From: an uncultured Gammaproteobacteria bacterium
GTDB taxonomy: Bacteria; Patescibacteriota; Microgenomatia; PFEM01; DATLAM01
Assembly (NCBI GenBank): GCA_964566925.1
Contig: CAZMIZ010000006.1
Location: forward strand, 1-56,914
Length of the DNA: 56,914 bases
Reading direction: 5' to 3'
Shown piece after piece: positions 15,954 through 49,259 of the stretch. Positions within the stretch are counted from its first letter, which is position 1. Each line of letters starts with the position of its first letter. The notes below the pieces were generated by a model. That model was not told where the DNA came from. It saw nothing but the letters and a program-made list of their open reading frames with translations, and did not search any database. Made by a program: the position numbers and the translations under genes.

Positions 15954-16325
15954 CTATTTAAATCTACTAACTATCGTAGCAAAAATTTTGGTAAATTCCA
16001 TCGCTTCTTTTCTAAGAGCATTAATTTCCTTCTTTAAATCCGGATTAAGCTCTAAAAGCAATTTTAGCCAATATTCCGTCTCCCTGGATTCTTTTTTGGC
16101 AATTTTGATTTTATGAACAAAGTCTTTAGCGCTTTCTGCTTCACAAGCCTCTCGATAGTTGGCCCCGACCGATGTCCCAGATCGAATAAGCTGAACAATC
16201 AATGGTTTATTAAGAGAATCTTTGGGAAATCTCTGTACCAATCTAAGTATTTTCTTGGCAAACTCTAAAGTTCTCTCAAGAAGTTTTTGATTGGCTTTCT
16301 TTCTGTCAAAGTCCTTCCTCACCAT
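15954..16325 (-). CDS. Four-helix-bundle protein (23S rRNA intervening-sequence protein / Avd-like)
   Basis: QLIRSGTSVGANYREA..AES.KDFVHKIKIAKKESRETEYWL. Confidence 0.92.
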   Translation of the reverse strand: MVRKDFDRKKANQKLLERTLEFAKKILRLVQRFPKDSLNKPLIVQLIRSGTSVGANYREACEAESAKDFVHKIKIAKKESRETEYWLKLLLELNPDLKKEINALRKEAMEFTKIFATIVSRFK

Positions 16326-20379: not shown

Positions 20380-22977
20380 CTACGGGGCGATTTCTTGCCA
20401 GGTGTAGCTGGCTTGTTGGATTTCAAGCGGTGTGTTAATCCAAAGTTCAGGCGAGAAAATAAAAGTTTCAGCCGGAGTATCTCCATTATCTCCTTCCAGA
20501 TCTCGTCCAAGACTAAATCCTTCCCAGCCGACAAACATCCCTTTGCCGGTGAAAACATTCGCTGAGGACTCAATCTCAATGGTGCCGTCGGCAATGAGAA
20601 TACCTTCTAAAGCCGGGTTAACACCCGCATCGGTGACATCGCCCTCAATGGTAATATCCTCGCCAACGATGAAGGCCAAGAAATTATTATTGGTGCCGAG
20701 ATTAATTCTTTCTTTAATCGTCAAATTGCCAGGAACCAAAATGACCACTTTCTGACCAGAACTGTTGACATTCCAAGAACTCTCAGGAAGACTAAGGTTG
20801 CCGTCACCCTCCACTTTGTAAAACCCATCTAGGGCATTCAAATCATCAATAGAAGGATTCTCACTTAAGGATTCTGGAGAGCTAATCAGGTGATCAAAGT
20901 AGTCATAGCCATAAGTCAAACCCCCATCAGAAGAGTTAGTCAACCAACCCTCTTCTGAGGCGGAATCATTACCAAAACTACAGCTGGTGCCATAGGAAAT
21001 CACTCCCGGTGAATCCCCGTCGCCTACAAGAGAACAATGTTCACCGGCGGGGAGAGGGTTAGAAAGAACCCCCTCGGCGTGAACATCACCATCCTTAGTT
21101 TGGAACCAAGCCCCAATCGTGCTGGTAAGGCCAATATTAACGGTCTTAACATCACCATCGCCGCTCAAAGTAACCGTGGCATTATTATTATCGTCGCCAT
21201 CACAATAATAAGGATCGCTATAACCATCAGGGAAGCCGGTCATCATTACCGTAAGAGGCTCCCCAACCGGTAAATCAGTAAACTGGTAGTCCGGATTAGG
21301 GGTTTGGGTTCCGTAACCAGCAATTTGAACCGTTCCCCCACTAAGGGTATCGCCATCCAAAGGGCAAGACTCACCTGATCCAGTGATATCATAAACCGTT
21401 CCATTAACCGTTCCGGTCGAAGGCTCATTAGGAGTAAAATCAATCGTGTCGGAACAGACCGTACACTCATCGGCTGAACTGGTAATCCCACAAACCTTAA
21501 TCCAGACCTGCAAACTCCGGCTACCAGTCCCGCTACAGTCTCCTTCTCTTCCCTCACAGATATCCCAATTAAAACCATGAAGGGTATCCTCGTCGTAAGT
21601 CGGTGTCCATTCACCTATGTCACCACTACTCCGATCAATTATTTTGGTCCAAGGGCCACTGCTGCTAAGATTGCTTAAAGAAACTCTACCGATCCCCTGG
21701 CTAATGTAGCCCGAGCCCAAGCCACCAATCGAGTTATCAACCGCGGCCACCAAATTTGAACTTTCTTCGGTTACCTCTTCTGTTTCATCCCAGGCACCAG
21801 TTAAGTAAGTATAGTTTCCCTCTGCCCCTTCTGCTCCGTTAACCTTAATCAGAGTAATCTCGATATTATAAATAAGCATCGAGCCGGTCTCCTCGGTGTG
21901 ATAAAAATAAAGGGCTTCGGAGGCGGGCCGAAGATAAACTGTTTTTGAACCAGTCCCTCTAACCTCCTTTAAACTATTATATGGGCTTCCAAAAGAGGCA
22001 CCATGGCGATATAAATTAATTTCAGGCGCCCCATCTAACCTTTTATGATTAAATTCGATCTTAAAAATCAATCTCCCACTAGGAATGTTATTGATAGCTA
22101 AAACCGAGCCTGGATAGAGAATGAAAAAATTACCCTCATAATTTAAATATTTCCGATGATCTGGTGGGGGCGGAGGAGGATCGCCGTCATAGGGACAACC
22201 CCATTTACCGCTTACCGAACAAGTGGCTTTATACCAATCAAGACCTGATGCCCCGGGACAAGCACCACCTGTTGTCTGATAGTTGGGTCGGCTCGGCACA
22301 CCGCTAGGCCTAGTCGAGCAGAAACTACCATTACAGGGCCAACCCGGAACTGATTCCCAATCATTCGTTTGGTTAGAAAAACCAAAGTAACAAACCTGTT
22401 CGGAAGCTCCTAGGTCAAATGGAATCCAGCCATTTTCAAAAGCCTGCCGGCCGGTTCTGGTGATTAATTCCTCATCCACTAAAACCTGATCAGTTTGATT
22501 AGGGTTACTTTCTTGACTGGGAACATAGTTGGCGGTGTTAACCGCAATCCGCTGAGAAAGCCTAATCCCACAATAATCTGGTGGTCGAGGCCCACCGCCT
22601 TTATTATGAACTCCAAAATCATTAGCAAAAAAGGTTTCTTTCCCATCAACCGAAAGATTATAAACATCCACCGGTTCTGGTTGGTAATCAAGCTTGGTAA
22701 TTGTTTCAGGTATTAAGTCTCCTGTCTCATTTTTTACAAAAACCCAATCACCAACCTTTAAATCTTTAACTTCAATAAACGAAGCATCTTCTAAATCCGG
22801 CCCAGGAACCTCTACCTCCTGGGCATGAACCGAACCTAATAATGCAAAACAAAGAACCAAGAACAAAGAACCAAGAACAAACGTTTTCAGTCCTACCTGC
22901 CCGCCGAAGTCTCGGCGAAGGTGGGAGTTTTTAGTTTTAAGTATTAAGTATTTAGTTAATTCGGGCAGTTTTTTCAT
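20380..22977 (-). CDS. Large secreted protein: signal peptide, C-terminal half of a Hint domain, Cys-rich region, CPR-type surface C-terminal domain
   Basis: h-region ending VHA/QE; FIEVKDLKVGD...VYNLSVDGKETFFANDFGVHN; C-term WFQTKDGDVHA...YTWQEIAP. Confidence 0.8.
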   Translation of the reverse strand: MKKLPELTKYLILKTKNSHLRRDFGGQVGLKTFVLGSLFLVLCFALLGSVHAQEVEVPGPDLEDASFIEVKDLKVGDWVFVKNETGDLIPETITKLDYQPEPVDVYNLSVDGKETFFANDFGVHNKGGGPRPPDYCGIRLSQRIAVNTANYVPSQESNPNQTDQVLVDEELITRTGRQAFENGWIPFDLGASEQVCYFGFSNQTNDWESVPGWPCNGSFCSTRPSGVPSRPNYQTTGGACPGASGLDWYKATCSVSGKWGCPYDGDPPPPPPDHRKYLNYEGNFFILYPGSVLAINNIPSGRLIFKIEFNHKRLDGAPEINLYRHGASFGSPYNSLKEVRGTGSKTVYLRPASEALYFYHTEETGSMLIYNIEITLIKVNGAEGAEGNYTYLTGAWDETEEVTEESSNLVAAVDNSIGGLGSGYISQGIGRVSLSNLSSSGPWTKIIDRSSGDIGEWTPTYDEDTLHGFNWDICEGREGDCSGTGSRSLQVWIKVCGITSSADECTVCSDTIDFTPNEPSTGTVNGTVYDITGSGESCPLDGDTLSGGTVQIAGYGTQTPNPDYQFTDLPVGEPLTVMMTGFPDGYSDPYYCDGDDNNNATVTLSGDGDVKTVNIGLTSTIGAWFQTKDGDVHAEGVLSNPLPAGEHCSLVGDGDSPGVISYGTSCSFGNDSASEEGWLTNSSDGGLTYGYDYFDHLISSPESLSENPSIDDLNALDGFYKVEGDGNLSLPESSWNVNSSGQKVVILVPGNLTIKERINLGTNNNFLAFIVGEDITIEGDVTDAGVNPALEGILIADGTIEIESSANVFTGKGMFVGWEGFSLGRDLEGDNGDTPAETFIFSPELWINTPLEIQQASYTWQEIAP
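22851..22957 (+). repeat. Composite repeat inside a coding N-terminus: heptamer array (AAAGAAC/CAAGAAC x4), REP-like palindrome, heptamer array (AGTWTTA)
   Basis: 22851-22878 four heptamers; 22892-22925 CCTACCTGCCCGCCGAAGTCTCGGCGAAGGTGGG; 22933-22953 three heptamers. Confidence 0.85.
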
Positions 22978-36194: not shown

Positions 36195-36265
36195 CAATGA
36201 CAAATTTCTAATGTCTAATTTCTAAATTTTTTAGATCAATTAGTCATTAGGTCAATTAGAAATTG
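36195..36265. repeat. Pair of mutually inverted heptamer arrays with no intervening gene
   Basis: Left CAATGAC AAATTTC TAATGTC TAATTTC TAA; right arm reverse complement CAATTTC TAATTGACC TAATGAC TAATTGATC TAA. Confidence 0.75.
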
Positions 36266-45161: not shown

Positions 45162-45695
45162 CTACTCCTCCATTGCTCCCTGCATCAGCTCTTCTATGTC
45201 TAAAAAGTTGACGCTGGCGGGAGGATCAAATTTTGAGTCAGAGAAAACCGCTGGTGCACAGCGATACTCGGCGTCAGTAGGCACGGAGGCCTGACTTTCT
45301 TCGGCATATTCCTCATCCATTTCCCAAAAATCTTCCTCAAAACAAGTCTTAATTCCTTGGGCTTCCCCTTCGGTCCAGCTCCAAAGACAATTGTCTTTAA
45401 TAATCACGTATCCCTGTTTGCCCTCCGTGGTTACTTCGCCATACATTTTTTTACCTTGGATATAGCTTGTGCCCGAGGTGCCACCTTGAGTGTAAGTACA
45501 TTTCATCGGCGCACCTAGAGTCATCGCATCTTTGATTTTCCCCACAAACTCTCCGCCCGCCTCCCCAGCTTCTTTAGTGATCTCTGCTCCCGGAACCGGT
45601 AAAGAAACTTCGCCTTTACCTAGAAAGTTCCAGGCAATAAAACCGATACCTACCACGACGACCGCTATCACAATAATCGGTAATCCTTTTTTCAA
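45162..45695 (-). CDS. Membrane-anchored hypothetical protein
   Basis: N-terminal TM; two Cys pairs. Confidence 0.7.
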   Translation of the reverse strand: MKKGLPIIVIAVVVVGIGFIAWNFLGKGEVSLPVPGAEITKEAGEAGGEFVGKIKDAMTLGAPMKCTYTQGGTSGTSYIQGKKMYGEVTTEGKQGYVIIKDNCLWSWTEGEAQGIKTCFEEDFWEMDEEYAEESQASVPTDAEYRCAPAVFSDSKFDPPASVNFLDIEELMQGAMEE

Positions 45696-45715
45696 GTTTT
45701 CTCACCCCCTTTCTT

Positions 45716-45742
45716 TGCCCTCCGTAACTTTAGTGGAGGGGG
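45716..45742. repeat. Intergenic REP-like palindrome
   Basis: TGCCCTCC-GTAACTTTAGT-GGAGGGGG; same layout as 22892-22925. Confidence 0.55.
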
Positions 45743-45751
45743 GTTTAAAAT

Positions 45752-46384
45752 TTATTCAATTACTTCCTCGACTTCCCAAATAACACCACTGCCAGCCGGC
45801 GCTCCTCCGCCGTCCGCAGGTTCAGCCACTTCTTCGCCTTCAATCGGGATAAAAGCAAAACTCTCTAGAATCTGGTCAAAAACTTCCAGCCAAAAGTCTT
45901 CTCCTTCAGGTTCCATTTCCAACAAAACCAGGGCATCCACATCAATCGCTGCTACCACCAGTTTTTCCGGATCAGAATAAGCAATTTTCTTGGCTGATTC
46001 TTCGCCTAATTGAGTATCTAAAATCTGGCCGCCAGGAGAAGCTTCTTCGTCAACCCAAGAATCGATATCTTGATAATCAGTCTCTTTAGCCCAAATCAAA
46101 ATCTTACCGGAATGATCAGTAGAAGTTAATTCAAGATGGGCATAATTTTCGGTGTCTTCTTCATGAGGATCAATTTCGACCTCTTCAGGATATAAAAAGC
46201 TAAAGCCTGCCTGATCCTCCCAGGCAAGAGCTTCTGCCTCTTCTGTTTGCTCGCCAATCGGAGTCACTAACGGCCCTATTTTTTTGAAGCGCCAAACCAA
46301 AATTGCCCCACCCACCACCAAAACAACGATAATTAAGCCGATTCCTATCAACTTTTTGTCTATAGGCGGCAATTTAAAATTCAT
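45752..46384 (-). CDS. Membrane-anchored hypothetical protein (PsbP-like)
   Basis: N-terminal TM; GFSFLYPEE...FDQILESFAF pattern. Confidence 0.6.
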   Translation of the reverse strand: MNFKLPPIDKKLIGIGLIIVVLVVGGAILVWRFKKIGPLVTPIGEQTEEAEALAWEDQAGFSFLYPEEVEIDPHEEDTENYAHLELTSTDHSGKILIWAKETDYQDIDSWVDEEASPGGQILDTQLGEESAKKIAYSDPEKLVVAAIDVDALVLLEMEPEGEDFWLEVFDQILESFAFIPIEGEEVAEPADGGGAPAGSGVIWEVEEVIE

Positions 46385-46487
46385 TATTCTCTCTATTAAA
46401 TTAAACGGCTACCCCTATCCTAACTTTCTTGACAAACGAATGTCAAATAACTAGAGTGGATAGTGAAAGTAATTAAGTAATTAATTA

Positions 46488-46919
46488 ATGAAAAAACTGT
46501 TGATCATTGGCCTTCCCCTCTTATTACTTCTTTCTCCTTTTAATTGGGTTTTGGCGGCCAAAAAGAGGCCACCCAGAAGTAGTGGGGAAGGTGCTCCAGT
46601 CCGGGCTTACTACACTCGTGGAGTCCGGGCTTCAATTCGCTTTCGGCCTGATCGACTTGGCTTGCTAGTTAATTTCTCTGGCTTTAGTAATATTGCTTCG
46701 GTCACCTATTCACTCACTTATACTGCCAATGGTATTCCCCAGGGTGTCTCCGGCACGGTTACCGCGGCCACGGCTGGCGAGCAAAGAGAAATTTTGTTCG
46801 GTACCTGCTCAGGTGGAATCTGCCGCTACCATACCAATATCACCAACGCCCGCCTGATTATTGATTCTAAGCTTTATTCGGGCACAATCATCCGCAAACC
46901 CTACCGGATTAAAGTTTGA
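46488..46919 (+). CDS. Secreted basic hypothetical protein
   Basis: Signal peptide; SVTYSLTY...GTCSGGICRYH. Confidence 0.65.
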   Translation: MKKLLIIGLPLLLLLSPFNWVLAAKKRPPRSSGEGAPVRAYYTRGVRASIRFRPDRLGLLVNFSGFSNIASVTYSLTYTANGIPQGVSGTVTAATAGEQREILFGTCSGGICRYHTNITNARLIIDSKLYSGTIIRKPYRIKV

Positions 46920-46934
46920 TTAAATGCTTGTAAC

Positions 46935-46963
46935 TAAAGACCTAAGACTCAATACTTGCGACT
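46935..46963 (+). repeat. Degenerate heptamer array upstream of the second four-helix gene
   Basis: TAAAGACC TAAGACT CAATACT TGCGACT. Confidence 0.6.
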
Positions 46964-46975
46964 AGATAGTGAAAG

Positions 46976-47338
46976 ATGGGGTTTCGGTTTCAGAAGTTTC
47001 CAATTTATAAAGAATTACGTTTATTTGTAAAGGAAATCTATCGCCTTTCCAGGACTTTTCCAAAATCTGAACAATTCGAATTGGGCGCCCAATTAAGGAG
47101 ATCGGCCTCATCAATTCTTCTTAATATTGCTGAAGGCTCTGCCAAAAAGTCTGATGCAGACTTTAATCGCTTTGTTCTCATTGCCATAGGTTCTCTGACA
47201 GAAATAGCTGCCATTCTGGACATTTCTCTAGATCAAAAATACATCACCATTAAGATTCACGGAGAATATATTAAGAGGTGTCAAAGCTTTGCCCGCCGCC
47301 TTTACGGCTTTAGCAGAAAATTGACAAAAAACGGCTAA
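46976..47338 (+). CDS. Four-helix-bundle protein (23S rRNA intervening-sequence protein / Avd-like)
   Basis: FQKFPIYK, FPKSEQFELGAQLRRSASSILLNIAEGS, F..IAIGSLTE. Confidence 0.93.
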   Translation: MGFRFQKFPIYKELRLFVKEIYRLSRTFPKSEQFELGAQLRRSASSILLNIAEGSAKKSDADFNRFVLIAIGSLTEIAAILDISLDQKYITIKIHGEYIKRCQSFARRLYGFSRKLTKNG

Positions 47339-47366
47339 AATTATAAAATTACCCTATATTCCCATT

Positions 47367-47396
47367 CGTATTTTGTATTAAGTATTAGGTATTAAG
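47367..47396 (+). repeat. Heptamer array downstream of the second four-helix gene, inverted relative to 46935-46963
   Basis: CGTATTT TGTATTA AGTATTA GGTATTA. Confidence 0.8.
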
Positions 47397-47403
47397 CAAT
47401 ATT

Positions 47404-47577
47404 ATGGCAAAGAAGGGTCCAAGGCAAATTTTAGCTTTAGTTTGTACGGCTTGCAAAAGCCAAAATTATGTTACGGAAAGAAATAAGGTTAATACGCCTG
47501 AGAAGCTGGTTTTGAAAAAATTCTGTCGAAGATGTAGGCGCGTAACCGAGCATAAAGAAACAAGCAAGCTTAAATAA
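47404..47577 (+). CDS. rpmG: 50S ribosomal protein L33, zinc-ribbon type (57 aa; absent from ORF track)
   Basis: Manual translation: MAKKGPRQILALVCTACKSQNYVTERNKVNTPEKLVLKKFCRRCRRVTEHKETSKLK*. Confidence 0.95.
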   Translation: MAKKGPRQILALVCTACKSQNYVTERNKVNTPEKLVLKKFCRRCRRVTEHKETSKLK

Positions 47578-47663
47578 GCCTATATCGGAGATCCTGCTAA
47601 ATCGCTCCTTGAGCCGTGTACGAATAGTACTGAAAAGGCGAAAGGTAAGATTATGTAGGGCAA
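47578..47663 (+). other. Putative 5' fragment (P3-P4-P5abc-like) of a group I intron
   Basis: GCCTATATCGGAGA start; TCCTGC/GTAGGG and TCGCT/GGCGA helices, GTAC-GAATA-GTAC hairpin, TGAAAA bulge, ends GGGCAA; no P7/P8 seen. Confidence 0.45.
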
Positions 47664-47712
47664 AAGGTGTCGCAAAGTAACCGAACACAAGGAAACGAGT
47701 AAATTAAAGTGA
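47662..47712 (+). pseudogene. Duplicate of the rpmG 3' end (KRCRKVTEHKETSKLK*)
   Basis: 14 of 16 residues identical to the L33 C-terminus; in-frame TAG at 47656-47658 precedes it. Confidence 0.88.
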
Positions 47713-47715
47713 TTT

Positions 47716-47788
47716 AGGCGAGTAGCTCAGCTGGTAGAGCACCGGTCTCCAAAACCGGCGGTCGGGGGTTCGATTCCCTCCTCGCCTG
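47716..47788 (+). tRNA. tRNA-Trp(CCA)
   Basis: AGGCGAG/CTCGCCT, CCGGT-CTCCAAA-ACCGG, G73. Confidence 0.96.
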
Positions 47789-47906
47789 CAAAACACCCTA
47801 TAATATTGAATCCTCCCCTCTCTTAAGATATAATTCTCCTGTTTAAATCAAGCTTTTCTGAAAAGACCCTTGCTTTTCTGGGAAACATCATTTTATTATA
47901 GTCTTA

Positions 47907-49259
47907 ATGCAGCTTTCTGTGCCTTTAAAGCTGATCTTAGCCTTGGTTCTGGGTGCAGTGATCGGCCTGGAAAGAGAATCTCATGAGAAGAAAAAACAGT
48001 CGCGGAAAGAAGCTCTTGGCACCATAGGCGTCAGAACTTTCTCCTTGATCACCGCTCTGGGGGCCATTGCCGGCCTCTTAAGAGAAGATTACTTCAGTCT
48101 TTTTCTGTTAATCAACGCCACTTTCATGGCTCTGTTAATCGCCTACTATACTCTCCAGAGCTTGCTGACTAAAGACCAAGGGATCACCACCGAAATTGCC
48201 ATCATCTTCAGTTATTTAATTGGATTGCTTATCATCTTGGAGATCTTTCCGATCCAACTGGTTTTAGCAATCACCATTGTTCTCGTCCTGATTCTAGCCC
48301 GAAAAGGAGAAATTAAGGCGCTGGTGGCCGGGATTAAGAGAAGCGAAATCAATGCCTTTATTAGCTACGCGATTATCGCTTTGGTTATTCTCCCTTTCCT
48401 GCCCAACCAATCATTCTTCCTGGCGGACATTCCCAACCTAGAGATGATTTTAAGTCCCTACGGGATCGATCTTGGTAAACTATCCCAAATCGAAATCATC
48501 AATCCCTTCTGGCTCTGGTTGATTGTCGCTTTAATTACTGGGGTGGAGATGCTTGGCTACCTCCTGGAGCGAACCGTTGGCCAAAAAAAAGGGTGGCTCT
48601 TAACCAGTATTGCCGGCGGCTTTATTTCCTCCACCGCCACTACCCAATCCTTAGCCCAACAGAGCCAAAAAGGCAAAATGGTCAACCTCTTGGTGGCTGC
48701 TGCCCTTTTTGCTAATCTAGCTTCCTTTTTCCAGGTCTTTATCTTTATTGCTCCAATTAACAGCCTTTTCTTAGTGAAAGTCACCCCCTTAATTTTGGCT
48801 ATTGTTCTCAGCGCTCTTTTAATGGGCTTGTTTTTCTTAAAGATTAAAGGAAGTTCAGATGAAGAAGATCTGCCGGCCACCAAAGAACGCTTAAAAAGAG
48901 AACAAATCTTTGCCCTTGGCCCGGCTTTAAAGTTCGCTTCTATCTTCTTGATAATTAGGATCGCTACCAAAATCTCTTTAGCTCTTTTCGGCAGCGGCGG
49001 ATTTTTAGCCACTGCGGTCATCGCCTCCGTCCCCGGAATTGATGCCGTGACCATTAACTTAGCGGAAATGGCTGGAAAAACAATTAATTTTCAAACTGGG
49101 GTTTTGGCTCTAATTCTGGTTAATGCGGCTAATCTTTTAAGTAAGGTCATCTACAGCTTTGTTCAAGGGAAACGGGAGTTTGCCCTTAAATTTGCCGCCA
49201 GCGTGGCGGTAATGATCCTCGCCAGCCTCTTAGGCCTCCTCCCCTTCTATAGCCTCTAA
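47907..49259 (+). CDS. MgtC/SapB + DUF4010 membrane protein
   Basis: LGAVIGLERE, GVRTFSL, GITTE, GGFISSTATT. Confidence 0.88.
   Translation: MQLSVPLKLILALVLGAVIGLERESHEKKKQSRKEALGTIGVRTFSLITALGAIAGLLREDYFSLFLLINATFMALLIAYYTLQSLLTKDQGITTEIAIIFSYLIGLLIILEIFPIQLVLAITIVLVLILARKGEIKALVAGIKRSEINAFISYAIIALVILPFLPNQSFFLADIPNLEMILSPYGIDLGKLSQIEIINPFWLWLIVALITGVEMLGYLLERTVGQKKGWLLTSIAGGFISSTATTQSLAQQSQKGKMVNLLVAAALFANLASFFQVFIFIAPINSLFLVKVTPLILAIVLSALLMGLFFLKIKGSSDEEDLPATKERLKREQIFALGPALKFASIFLIIRIATKISLALFGSGGFLATAVIASVPGIDAVTINLAEMAGKTINFQTGVLALILVNAANLLSKVIYSFVQGKREFALKFAASVAVMILASLLGLLPFYSL

Follow-up and report, generated by a model that had tools for sequence, protein, structure and literature searches.

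Positions 46925-47398 of the window, the whole 56,914-nt stretch of DNA analysed here (GenBank assembly GCA_964566925.1, contig CAZMIZ010000006.1, positions 1 to 56,914 of the forward strand; GTDB Patescibacteriota, Microgenomatia), are best explained as a cassette of the intervening-sequence (IVS) type known from rRNA, in which two arrays of one heptamer, inverted relative to each other, enclose a gene for a four-helix-bundle protein of the family PF05635, directly upstream of rpmG, the gene for ribosomal protein L33. This explanation, taken jointly with the lineage, the stem mechanism and the mode of spread set out below, is judged to be evenly poised between being right and being wrong. The window belongs to the source genome, G000 (870 kb in 11 contigs, 93% complete), whose sister genome is referred to as G001, and all features of the locus located below between 46488 and 47789 are on the plus strand.

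The enclosed open reading frame (ORF) at 46976-47338 encodes 120 aa and matches PF05635 (TIGR02436), the 23S rRNA intervening-sequence protein family, with 102.9 bits (cut-off 33.8; E 1.4e-29) in an alignment that spans profile positions 2-105 of 106, and its residues 11-84 were matched by phmmer to chain A of PDB 2GSC (XCC0516), a solved four-helix bundle (E 1.4e-14). Between orthologues the ratio of non-synonymous to synonymous divergence (dN/dS) of the protein is 0.04-0.10, with dS about 2 or beyond calculation, and this combination of a low ratio and saturated synonymous sites indicates a functional protein and an old lineage. An earlier note on this DNA, made from the letters alone, had described the locus as a second four-helix-bundle cassette with inverted flanking arrays and its protein as a divergent paralogue of that at 15954-16325, the first cassette. 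Both descriptions hold, given the family match, flanks that pair at p about 0.01, and 40% identity between the two proteins over 55 residues (E 4e-6). No Shine-Dalgarno sequence is present in the 13-nt gap between the 5' arm and the ORF, and an Rfam scan of 46400-47900 returned tRNA-Trp only, with no known leader or RNA motif.

The 3' arm (47368-47395) is composed of the heptamers GTATTTT, GTATTAA, GTATTAG and GTATTAA and ends 8 nt before the rpmG ATG; Tandem Repeats Finder places this downstream array at 47375-47396, with a period of 7, 3.1 copies and a score of 37. The 5' arm (46934-46962) reads (C)TAAAGAC CTAAGAC TCAATAC TTGCGAC and is homologous to the clear 9-unit array of the orthologue at locus L067. 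In G000 this upstream array is absent from the Tandem Repeats Finder output at scores of at least 30, its neighbouring units being only 3-5/7 alike, and it is on that account regarded as eroded. The units TAAGACT and CAATACT each pair at 6 of 7 positions with the downstream AGTATTA units (reverse complement TAATACT), as had been read earlier, and the 7-nt unit was likewise correctly set apart from the 8- and 9-nt units that Tandem Repeats Finder gives for the first cassette, to which it is unrelated.

Without gaps, the arms pair best as CTAAAGACCTAAGACTCAATAC (46934-46955) with 47375-47396, whose reverse complement it matches at 18/22 positions, and an outer helix of TGCTTG (46925-46930) with TAAGCA (47393-47398), found in the minimum-free-energy, centroid and duplex folds, adds six pairs. 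In the minimum-free-energy fold of 46920-47403, and equally in its centroid fold, the paired arms form the closing stem. The flanks, when locally aligned, score 24, which relative to 100 dinucleotide shuffles is a z of 3.3 (p about 0.01), and the RNA duplex energy is -20.0 kcal/mol against -11.9 +/- 2.9 in 1000 dinucleotide shuffles (p 0.011), the antisense strand being similar. Shuffles thus do not pair equally well, as the earlier note had allowed that they might in A/T-rich spacers. Taken alone, the pairing signal of the rpmG cassette is modest; the duplex of the first cassette is stronger, at -37.0 kcal/mol (p 0.001).

A site-bound lineage directly 5' of rpmG

Comparison of orthologous loci shows the G000 copy to be a member of an old lineage bound to the site directly 5' of rpmG, within which the heptamer family has been inherited. 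The clade comprises 11 loci, from G000, the genomes G063 and G406 and eight metagenomic contigs (L066-L070 and L131-L134; nine were fetched and are counted as eight, L068 and L069 having identical protein and flanks). Protein identity within the clade is 52-85% (53-78% for the homologues returned by protein search), and the closest homologues carry the source names 'Candidatus Daviesbacteria' and 'Patescibacteria group'. In all 11 loci the gene lies directly 5' of rpmG, with a spacer of 26-86 nt that is largely 3' arm, and one heptamer family is common to all 11 cassettes (5' AAAACTT / AAAGCTT / AATACTT, 3' AAGTTTT / AAGTATT). In G000, rpmG (PF00471, E 3.2e-19) occupies 47404-47577, in agreement with the earlier placing of the cassette directly before it.

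The same comparison shows the ancestral site to lie between tRNA-Thr(GGT) and rpmG, inside a tRNA-Thr / rpmG / tRNA-Trp unit. The upstream neighbour is tRNA-Thr(GGT) in 6 of the 11 loci, with the 5' arm beginning 3-6 nt after the tRNA, and cassette-free relatives have tRNA-Thr(GGT), 20-60 nt, rpmG and tRNA-Trp in succession. The conserved downstream landmark of the unit is represented in G000 by tRNA-Trp(CCA) at 47716-47789 (ARAGORN, Rfam), in an order kept in relatives, and the upstream neighbour is here a gene for a 143-aa secreted-type protein with no Pfam family (46488-46919), orthologues of which precede rpmG in G001, G010, G018 and L067 (identity 81% in G001 and 71% in L067). Despite saturated synonymous sites, 21 of the 25 nt that follow the PF05635 stop are identical between G000 and L067, and the fact that both the arms and these 25 nt can still be aligned at such divergence argues that the flanks are constrained.

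A homologue at 45% identity, on the metagenomic contig L135, is located elsewhere, in a locus resembling a type IV secretion system. There, a PrgI-like gene has a PF05635 gene on either side, and a TraC-like gene follows (L135:1422-2854), an arrangement that parallels the two cassettes at C1:188-190 kb of G000.

The distribution of the clade is patchy, with members in only two of 401 species-level genomes of the class (G000 and G063). Among 30 rpmG loci of G000 and its relatives, a PF05635 gene within 700 nt upstream was found only in G000, the other 29 (20 of them from the family and order of G000, 9 from the class at large) giving no match in that interval, and in the family of G063 two of 30 rpmG loci are filled and 28 are empty. 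G001, the only other genome searched from the family of G000, has an L33 93% identical and a 143-aa protein 81% identical to those of G000, and its site is empty, the genes for the two proteins being separated by a 42-nt spacer with no cassette. This spacer (locus L037) contains AAAACTT C AAAAAAACTT AAGTTGTGTTAAAAT, i.e. two 5'-arm units of the clade abutting a 3'-arm-like unit, with the palindrome AACTTAAGTT; the repeats may be a deletion scar, or may have arisen by chance in an A/T-rich spacer.

Identities of the PF05635 protein and of L33 are discordant across the clade (r 0.30; for example 85% against 61% between G063 and G406, and 65% against 80% between L133 and G063), which disfavours simple vertical descent. 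In G000, a remnant of an older rpmG 3' end (GKRCRKVTEHKETSKLK and stop, 47659-47712) is located 3 nt before tRNA-Trp, the position at which rpmG ends in G001 and L067. Of the 54 nt of the remnant, 10 are different in G001 rpmG, and in eight codons the only changes are synonymous. For the present rpmG the corresponding counts are 20 nt against the remnant, where 11 codons carry synonymous changes alone, and 15 nt of this stretch against G001 rpmG, so that the remnant is the closer of the two to G001. That the differences are almost all synonymous indicates that until recently each of the two was a functional gene. Most simply, this arrangement suggests that a block of cassette and rpmG was placed upstream of a resident rpmG by recombination, and that the resident copy was then truncated; the alternative is a long-standing two-copy rpmG state. 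No rpmG remnant was found in the ten other cassette-bearing loci, and the footprint is unique to G000. With respect to spread, no transposition enzyme is evident, and the cassette would appear to travel with its conserved neighbours by recombination.

Complementary flanks across the PF05635 family

Among the 11 orthologues, the two arms of a cassette match each other better than they match the arms of other cassettes (mean 26.5 against 20.7, permutation p 0.0003), which argues that complementarity itself is maintained. Each of the six PF05635 genes of G000 is preceded by short tandem units and followed by their reverse complements, the unit being different in every case. When the upstream 90 nt of each of the 902 ORFs of G000 were aligned to the reverse complement of the downstream 90 nt, these six genes ranked 1, 3, 8, 13, 19 and 25 for flank complementarity, the rpmG cassette being 13th, and the chance of all six falling within the top 25 is about 2e-10 by our own arithmetic. 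Alignment scores were used here in place of a ranking by RNAduplex energy, which was dominated by GC-rich coding flanks. Tandem arrays were not present in the other high-scoring ORF flanks of this ranking. A class-wide sample of 91 PF05635 genes was taken from G000, about 25 related genomes belonging to its class and five metagenomic contigs with close homologues; flank complementarity was significant (p <= 0.02) for 62 of them, and every one of these has a repeat unit of its own.

The earlier note had taken the second cassette as an independent recurrence of the inverted layout with unrelated sequence, and had argued from this that structure and not sequence is selected. The layout does recur, around all six paralogues and 62 of the 91 family members, with units of their own and with complementarity maintained, but the rpmG cassette is an inherited orthologue and no independent re-invention, and selection on RNA structure is not demonstrated, because the mismatches of the arms are without an excess of G·U.

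The correlation of repeat unit with protein clade, proposed earlier as a check, is present in qualified form. Of the pairs with 60-70% protein identity, 9 of 18 have at least three 6-mers common to their arms, as against 1-6% of pairs below 60%, from which the unit appears to track the protein clade among close relatives only. Such co-variation also speaks for arrays that serve as protein-binding iterons, in which case an oligomeric PF05635 protein, or some other factor, would bind the heptamers on both sides, auto-regulate the cassette and modulate rpmG. The repeats are indeed tandem and short, in arrays of typically 4-5 units, the 3' arm has a promoter-like site on one side and the rpmG start on the other, and the solved relative is a homopentamer. 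However, the units are unrelated below about 60% protein identity though the proteins keep a conserved core, the inverted symmetry and the better matching of own arms would be needless for simple operator arrays, and array copy number differs freely between the two sides. We also know of no DNA-binding motif in the family, and an iteron function is regarded as very improbable.

Proposed stem processing and a putative rpmG promoter

By analogy with the ORF-bearing IVS of 23S rRNA, the arms most likely form an RNA stem that would be cut by RNase III. The cassette would be transcribed from upstream together with its host unit; at the six loci where the 5' arm begins 3-6 nt after tRNA-Thr(GGT), the gap is too short to hold a promoter, and the 5' arm is for this reason presumably co-transcribed with the tRNA. 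The two arms would then pair into an imperfect stem, in G000 of about 15-22 bp and about -20 kcal/mol, which would loop out the ORF and, as in the 23S rRNA IVS of Coxiella, may be a substrate for the RNase III of G000 (rnc, C2:44609-45001). Cleavage would release the flanking RNAs in nearly native form, here the rpmG mRNA with a short leader, and it is proposed that the insert is tolerable inside an essential transcription unit because the rpmG mRNA would be freed in this way.

A second possible source of rpmG mRNA is found within the cassette. The sequence TTGACA-17-TAAAAT at 47321-47349, which agrees with the consensus at 11 of 12 positions, is the best promoter-like site in 46300-47950; the ORF stop falls within it, it is directed into the 3' arm and rpmG, and TTGACA-17-TAnnAT is kept in the orthologues L067, L066 and L068. 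The predicted promoter at the 3' end of the ORF probably drives rpmG directly in this subclade of G000, L067, L066 and L068. Cassette-free relatives (L037-L065, L146-L174) have a TATAAT or TGnTAAAAT box whose end is 6-9 nt upstream of the rpmG ATG and which often follows immediately on tRNA-Thr(GGT), and this position of the box suggests that the rpmG mRNA is leaderless or near-leaderless across the class.

Several observations weigh against an RNase III-processed stem and against the account of spread that accompanies it. The 3' arm is separated from the ORF by the promoter-like site, and transcripts from the predicted start would carry only the 3' arm. The stem of G000 is weak, short and imperfect (18/22 matches and six outer pairs), and its own arms score 24 together, against 28-29 with the arms of L066 and L067. 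The fold of the whole cassette has a z of only -1.07, a score that is uninformative because the ORF dominates the fold. Across the 62 armed cassettes, 66 G·U and 51 A·C mismatches were counted, a difference that is not significant and that, as a test of RNA- against DNA-level selection, would be confounded by any C-to-T bias on the coding strand, and 171 mismatches of transversion type dominate; no mark of selection specific to the sense RNA is seen. With regard to spread, both L33 and the 143-aa protein (81% and 71%) place L067 as an outgroup to G000 and G001, yet it has the full three-gene layout, so that loss in G001 would be favoured.

Part of this evidence would also be explained if the G000 cassette were a decaying relic, in which a once-working stem is eroding, the internal promoter has taken over rpmG, the 3' arm is an A/U-rich leader only and the PF05635 gene is kept for a function unrelated to the arms. 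The 5' array below the Tandem Repeats Finder threshold, the pairing of only 18 of 22 positions, arms that match those of orthologues as well as they match each other, and the conservation with L067 of TTGACA-17-TAAAAT and the downstream 25 nt are all consistent with decay, and the ORF is under purifying selection regardless. However, the flank pairing beats about 99% of shuffles and closes both predicted folds, and the arms are recognisably conserved with L067 at saturated synonymous sites, which argues for continued constraint. Decay of this kind is considered unlikely.

The mismatch classes, being strand-symmetric, are as expected of a process acting on DNA, and the inverted arrays may instead be the structure-defined ends (hairpin or cruciform) of a mobile DNA element, with the PF05635 oligomer as a nucleic-acid-binding accessory factor, like the protein Avd of diversity-generating retroelements (DGRs), and with catalysis provided in trans. 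Patchy presence with clean empty sites would fit such an element, as would gene-less hairpins of like build in G000 (36195-36265; C4:99786-99868), one-sided array expansion (the 3' arm of L131, with 7 perfect GTTGTAA) and the presence of one reverse transcriptase gene elsewhere in the genome (C2:135877-136494). Set against this, there is no transposase, recombinase or reverse transcriptase in the cassette or beside any of the six copies, the junctions show no sign of a target-site duplication, and the arms differ between copies of one genome, leaving no shared end sequence for an enzyme. The clade members are moreover old, with saturated dS, near-identical copies at different sites were not found, and all 11 members are at one site and not at many. 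A DNA-level element is considered unlikely.

Returning to the RNA stem, its most general form is possible though doubtful: PF05635 cassettes would then form a single, widespread class of inserts that are selfish and defined by structure, the rRNA IVS being only its best-known members. Such inserts may persist in rRNA and in tRNA/ribosomal-protein units through excision by RNase III, and may spread without an enzyme of their own through conserved flanks, by homologous or homology-facilitated recombination, the rpmG remnant of G000 being a footprint of such an event. Their arms would be kept complementary by a concerted process involving the PF05635 protein.

Relation to known elements

The IVS in helix 45 of the 23S rRNA of Coxiella burnetii contains a PF05635 ORF and a 28-bp terminal stem with one mismatch, one bulge and tandem GACAGAT heptamers, and RNase III cleavage has been mapped within this stem (Warrier et al. 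2016, PMC4990558). The rRNA IVS of Coxiella and Leptospira and the rpmG cassette are alike in having an 'S23p' PF05635 ORF of about 120 aa in the loop of an inverted-repeat stem, in a location inside a highly conserved, highly transcribed unit of the stable-RNA type, in a patchy distribution and in the lack of a known mobility enzyme. Tandem heptamers in the arms are shared with the Coxiella-type IVS, the 3' arm of the rpmG cassette being GTATTAA x3.1 and its 5' arm degenerate in G000 and clear in L067. The differences are that the rpmG cassette is located between a protein gene (ancestrally tRNA-Thr) and rpmG and not within a helix of 23S or 16S rRNA, that its stem is shorter and less perfect (18/22 against 28 bp), with cleavage predicted where that in rRNA has been mapped, and that it has an internal putative promoter for the downstream gene. 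In addition, the Coxiella ORF has been described as decaying (PMC4990558), whereas the PF05635 gene of G000 is under strong purifying selection (dN/dS 0.04-0.10).

The Avd proteins of DGRs belong to the same structural superfamily and are likewise small, basic, oligomerising four-helix-bundle proteins. A DGR was rejected as an identity for the locus: the match of the ORF to PF22296 (bAvd) is weak and below the cut-off (E 8.4e-4, 20.2 bits against 40), none of the ORFs of 45500-49000 encodes a reverse transcriptase, and no template or variable repeat is adjacent. The sole RVT_1 gene of G000 (C2:135877-136494, in a 372-aa open frame) is on another contig and is not beside any PF05635 gene; an array of CAAAATTC x3.6 lies about 1 kb from it, at C2:137527-137556.

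MITEs (miniature inverted-repeat transposable elements) and similar palindromic elements resemble the cassette in being short, non-autonomous and intergenic, with inverted ends and with filled and empty sites among relatives, but the ends of PF05635 cassettes are tandem arrays and not unique terminal inverted repeats. A transposon or MITE was also rejected, given six copies with unrelated arm units, no direct repeat at the junctions and no transposase adjacent.

Intergenic heptamer arrays are a further point of comparison. The GGGAATC heptamers of Xanthomonas are intergenic and frequently occur as convergent inverted pairs able to form stem-loops (PMC4692102, on Xanthomonas and Nostoc), and TAACTGA heptamer repeats occur in Beggiatoaceae, cyanobacteria and Bacteroidetes (PMC4679880). 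These arrays are alike in consisting of tandem 7-nt units between genes, often directly upstream of a start codon; they differ in being gene-less and in having one unit genome-wide, whereas each PF05635 cassette has its own unit and encloses a gene. The PF05635 family is absent from the text of both papers, and a literature search by family name, judged by titles and abstracts, returned no description of the PF05635 cassette design outside rRNA. The long-noted heptamer arrays of bacteria are here linked to a protein family.

The origin and function of the rRNA IVS and of the very large PF05635 family have, to our knowledge, gone unexplained since the 1990s. The present instance adds a conserved site beside rpmG, a series of orthologues whose arms are inherited and kept complementary, a putative internal promoter for rpmG and a probable recombination footprint. 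The rpmG-site cassette provides a tractable model outside rRNA for the stem as an RNase III excision signal, for binding of the arms by the protein and for the movement of cassettes that lack an enzyme. It also carries a warning for annotation, in that the region 5' of rpmG in these bacteria of the candidate phyla radiation (CPR) can hold an insert that replaces the native promoter of leaderless type.

Further arrays were also seen. At 22885-22966 of the window, between two minus-strand genes for secreted proteins, a solo array (AGTTTTT AGTTTTA AGTATTA AGTATTT) beside a small GC-rich hairpin has a unit of the same family as the 3' arm of the rpmG cassette, and no partner array was seen there. 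In the clade member L131, the 3' arm (L131:2861-2916) consists of seven perfect GTTGTAA units and the 5' arm is degenerate, from which it follows that arrays can expand on one side only. When the gene-less recurrence of cassette units was compared with that of foreign units, counts of 11-14-mers were dominated by low-complexity and conserved-gene matches. Two gene-less hairpins were located individually. The first, at 36195-36265 of the window in the 5' region of a site-2-protease-like gene, is formed by inverted heptamer/nonamer arrays of the AATTTCTAA type, with a unit resembling the arms of the C1:188 kb cassette and of the foreign cassettes L130 and L115. The second, a heptamer-array hairpin at C4:99786-99868 of G000, consists of TAATGAC x4.9 followed by CATTAAT x5.0.

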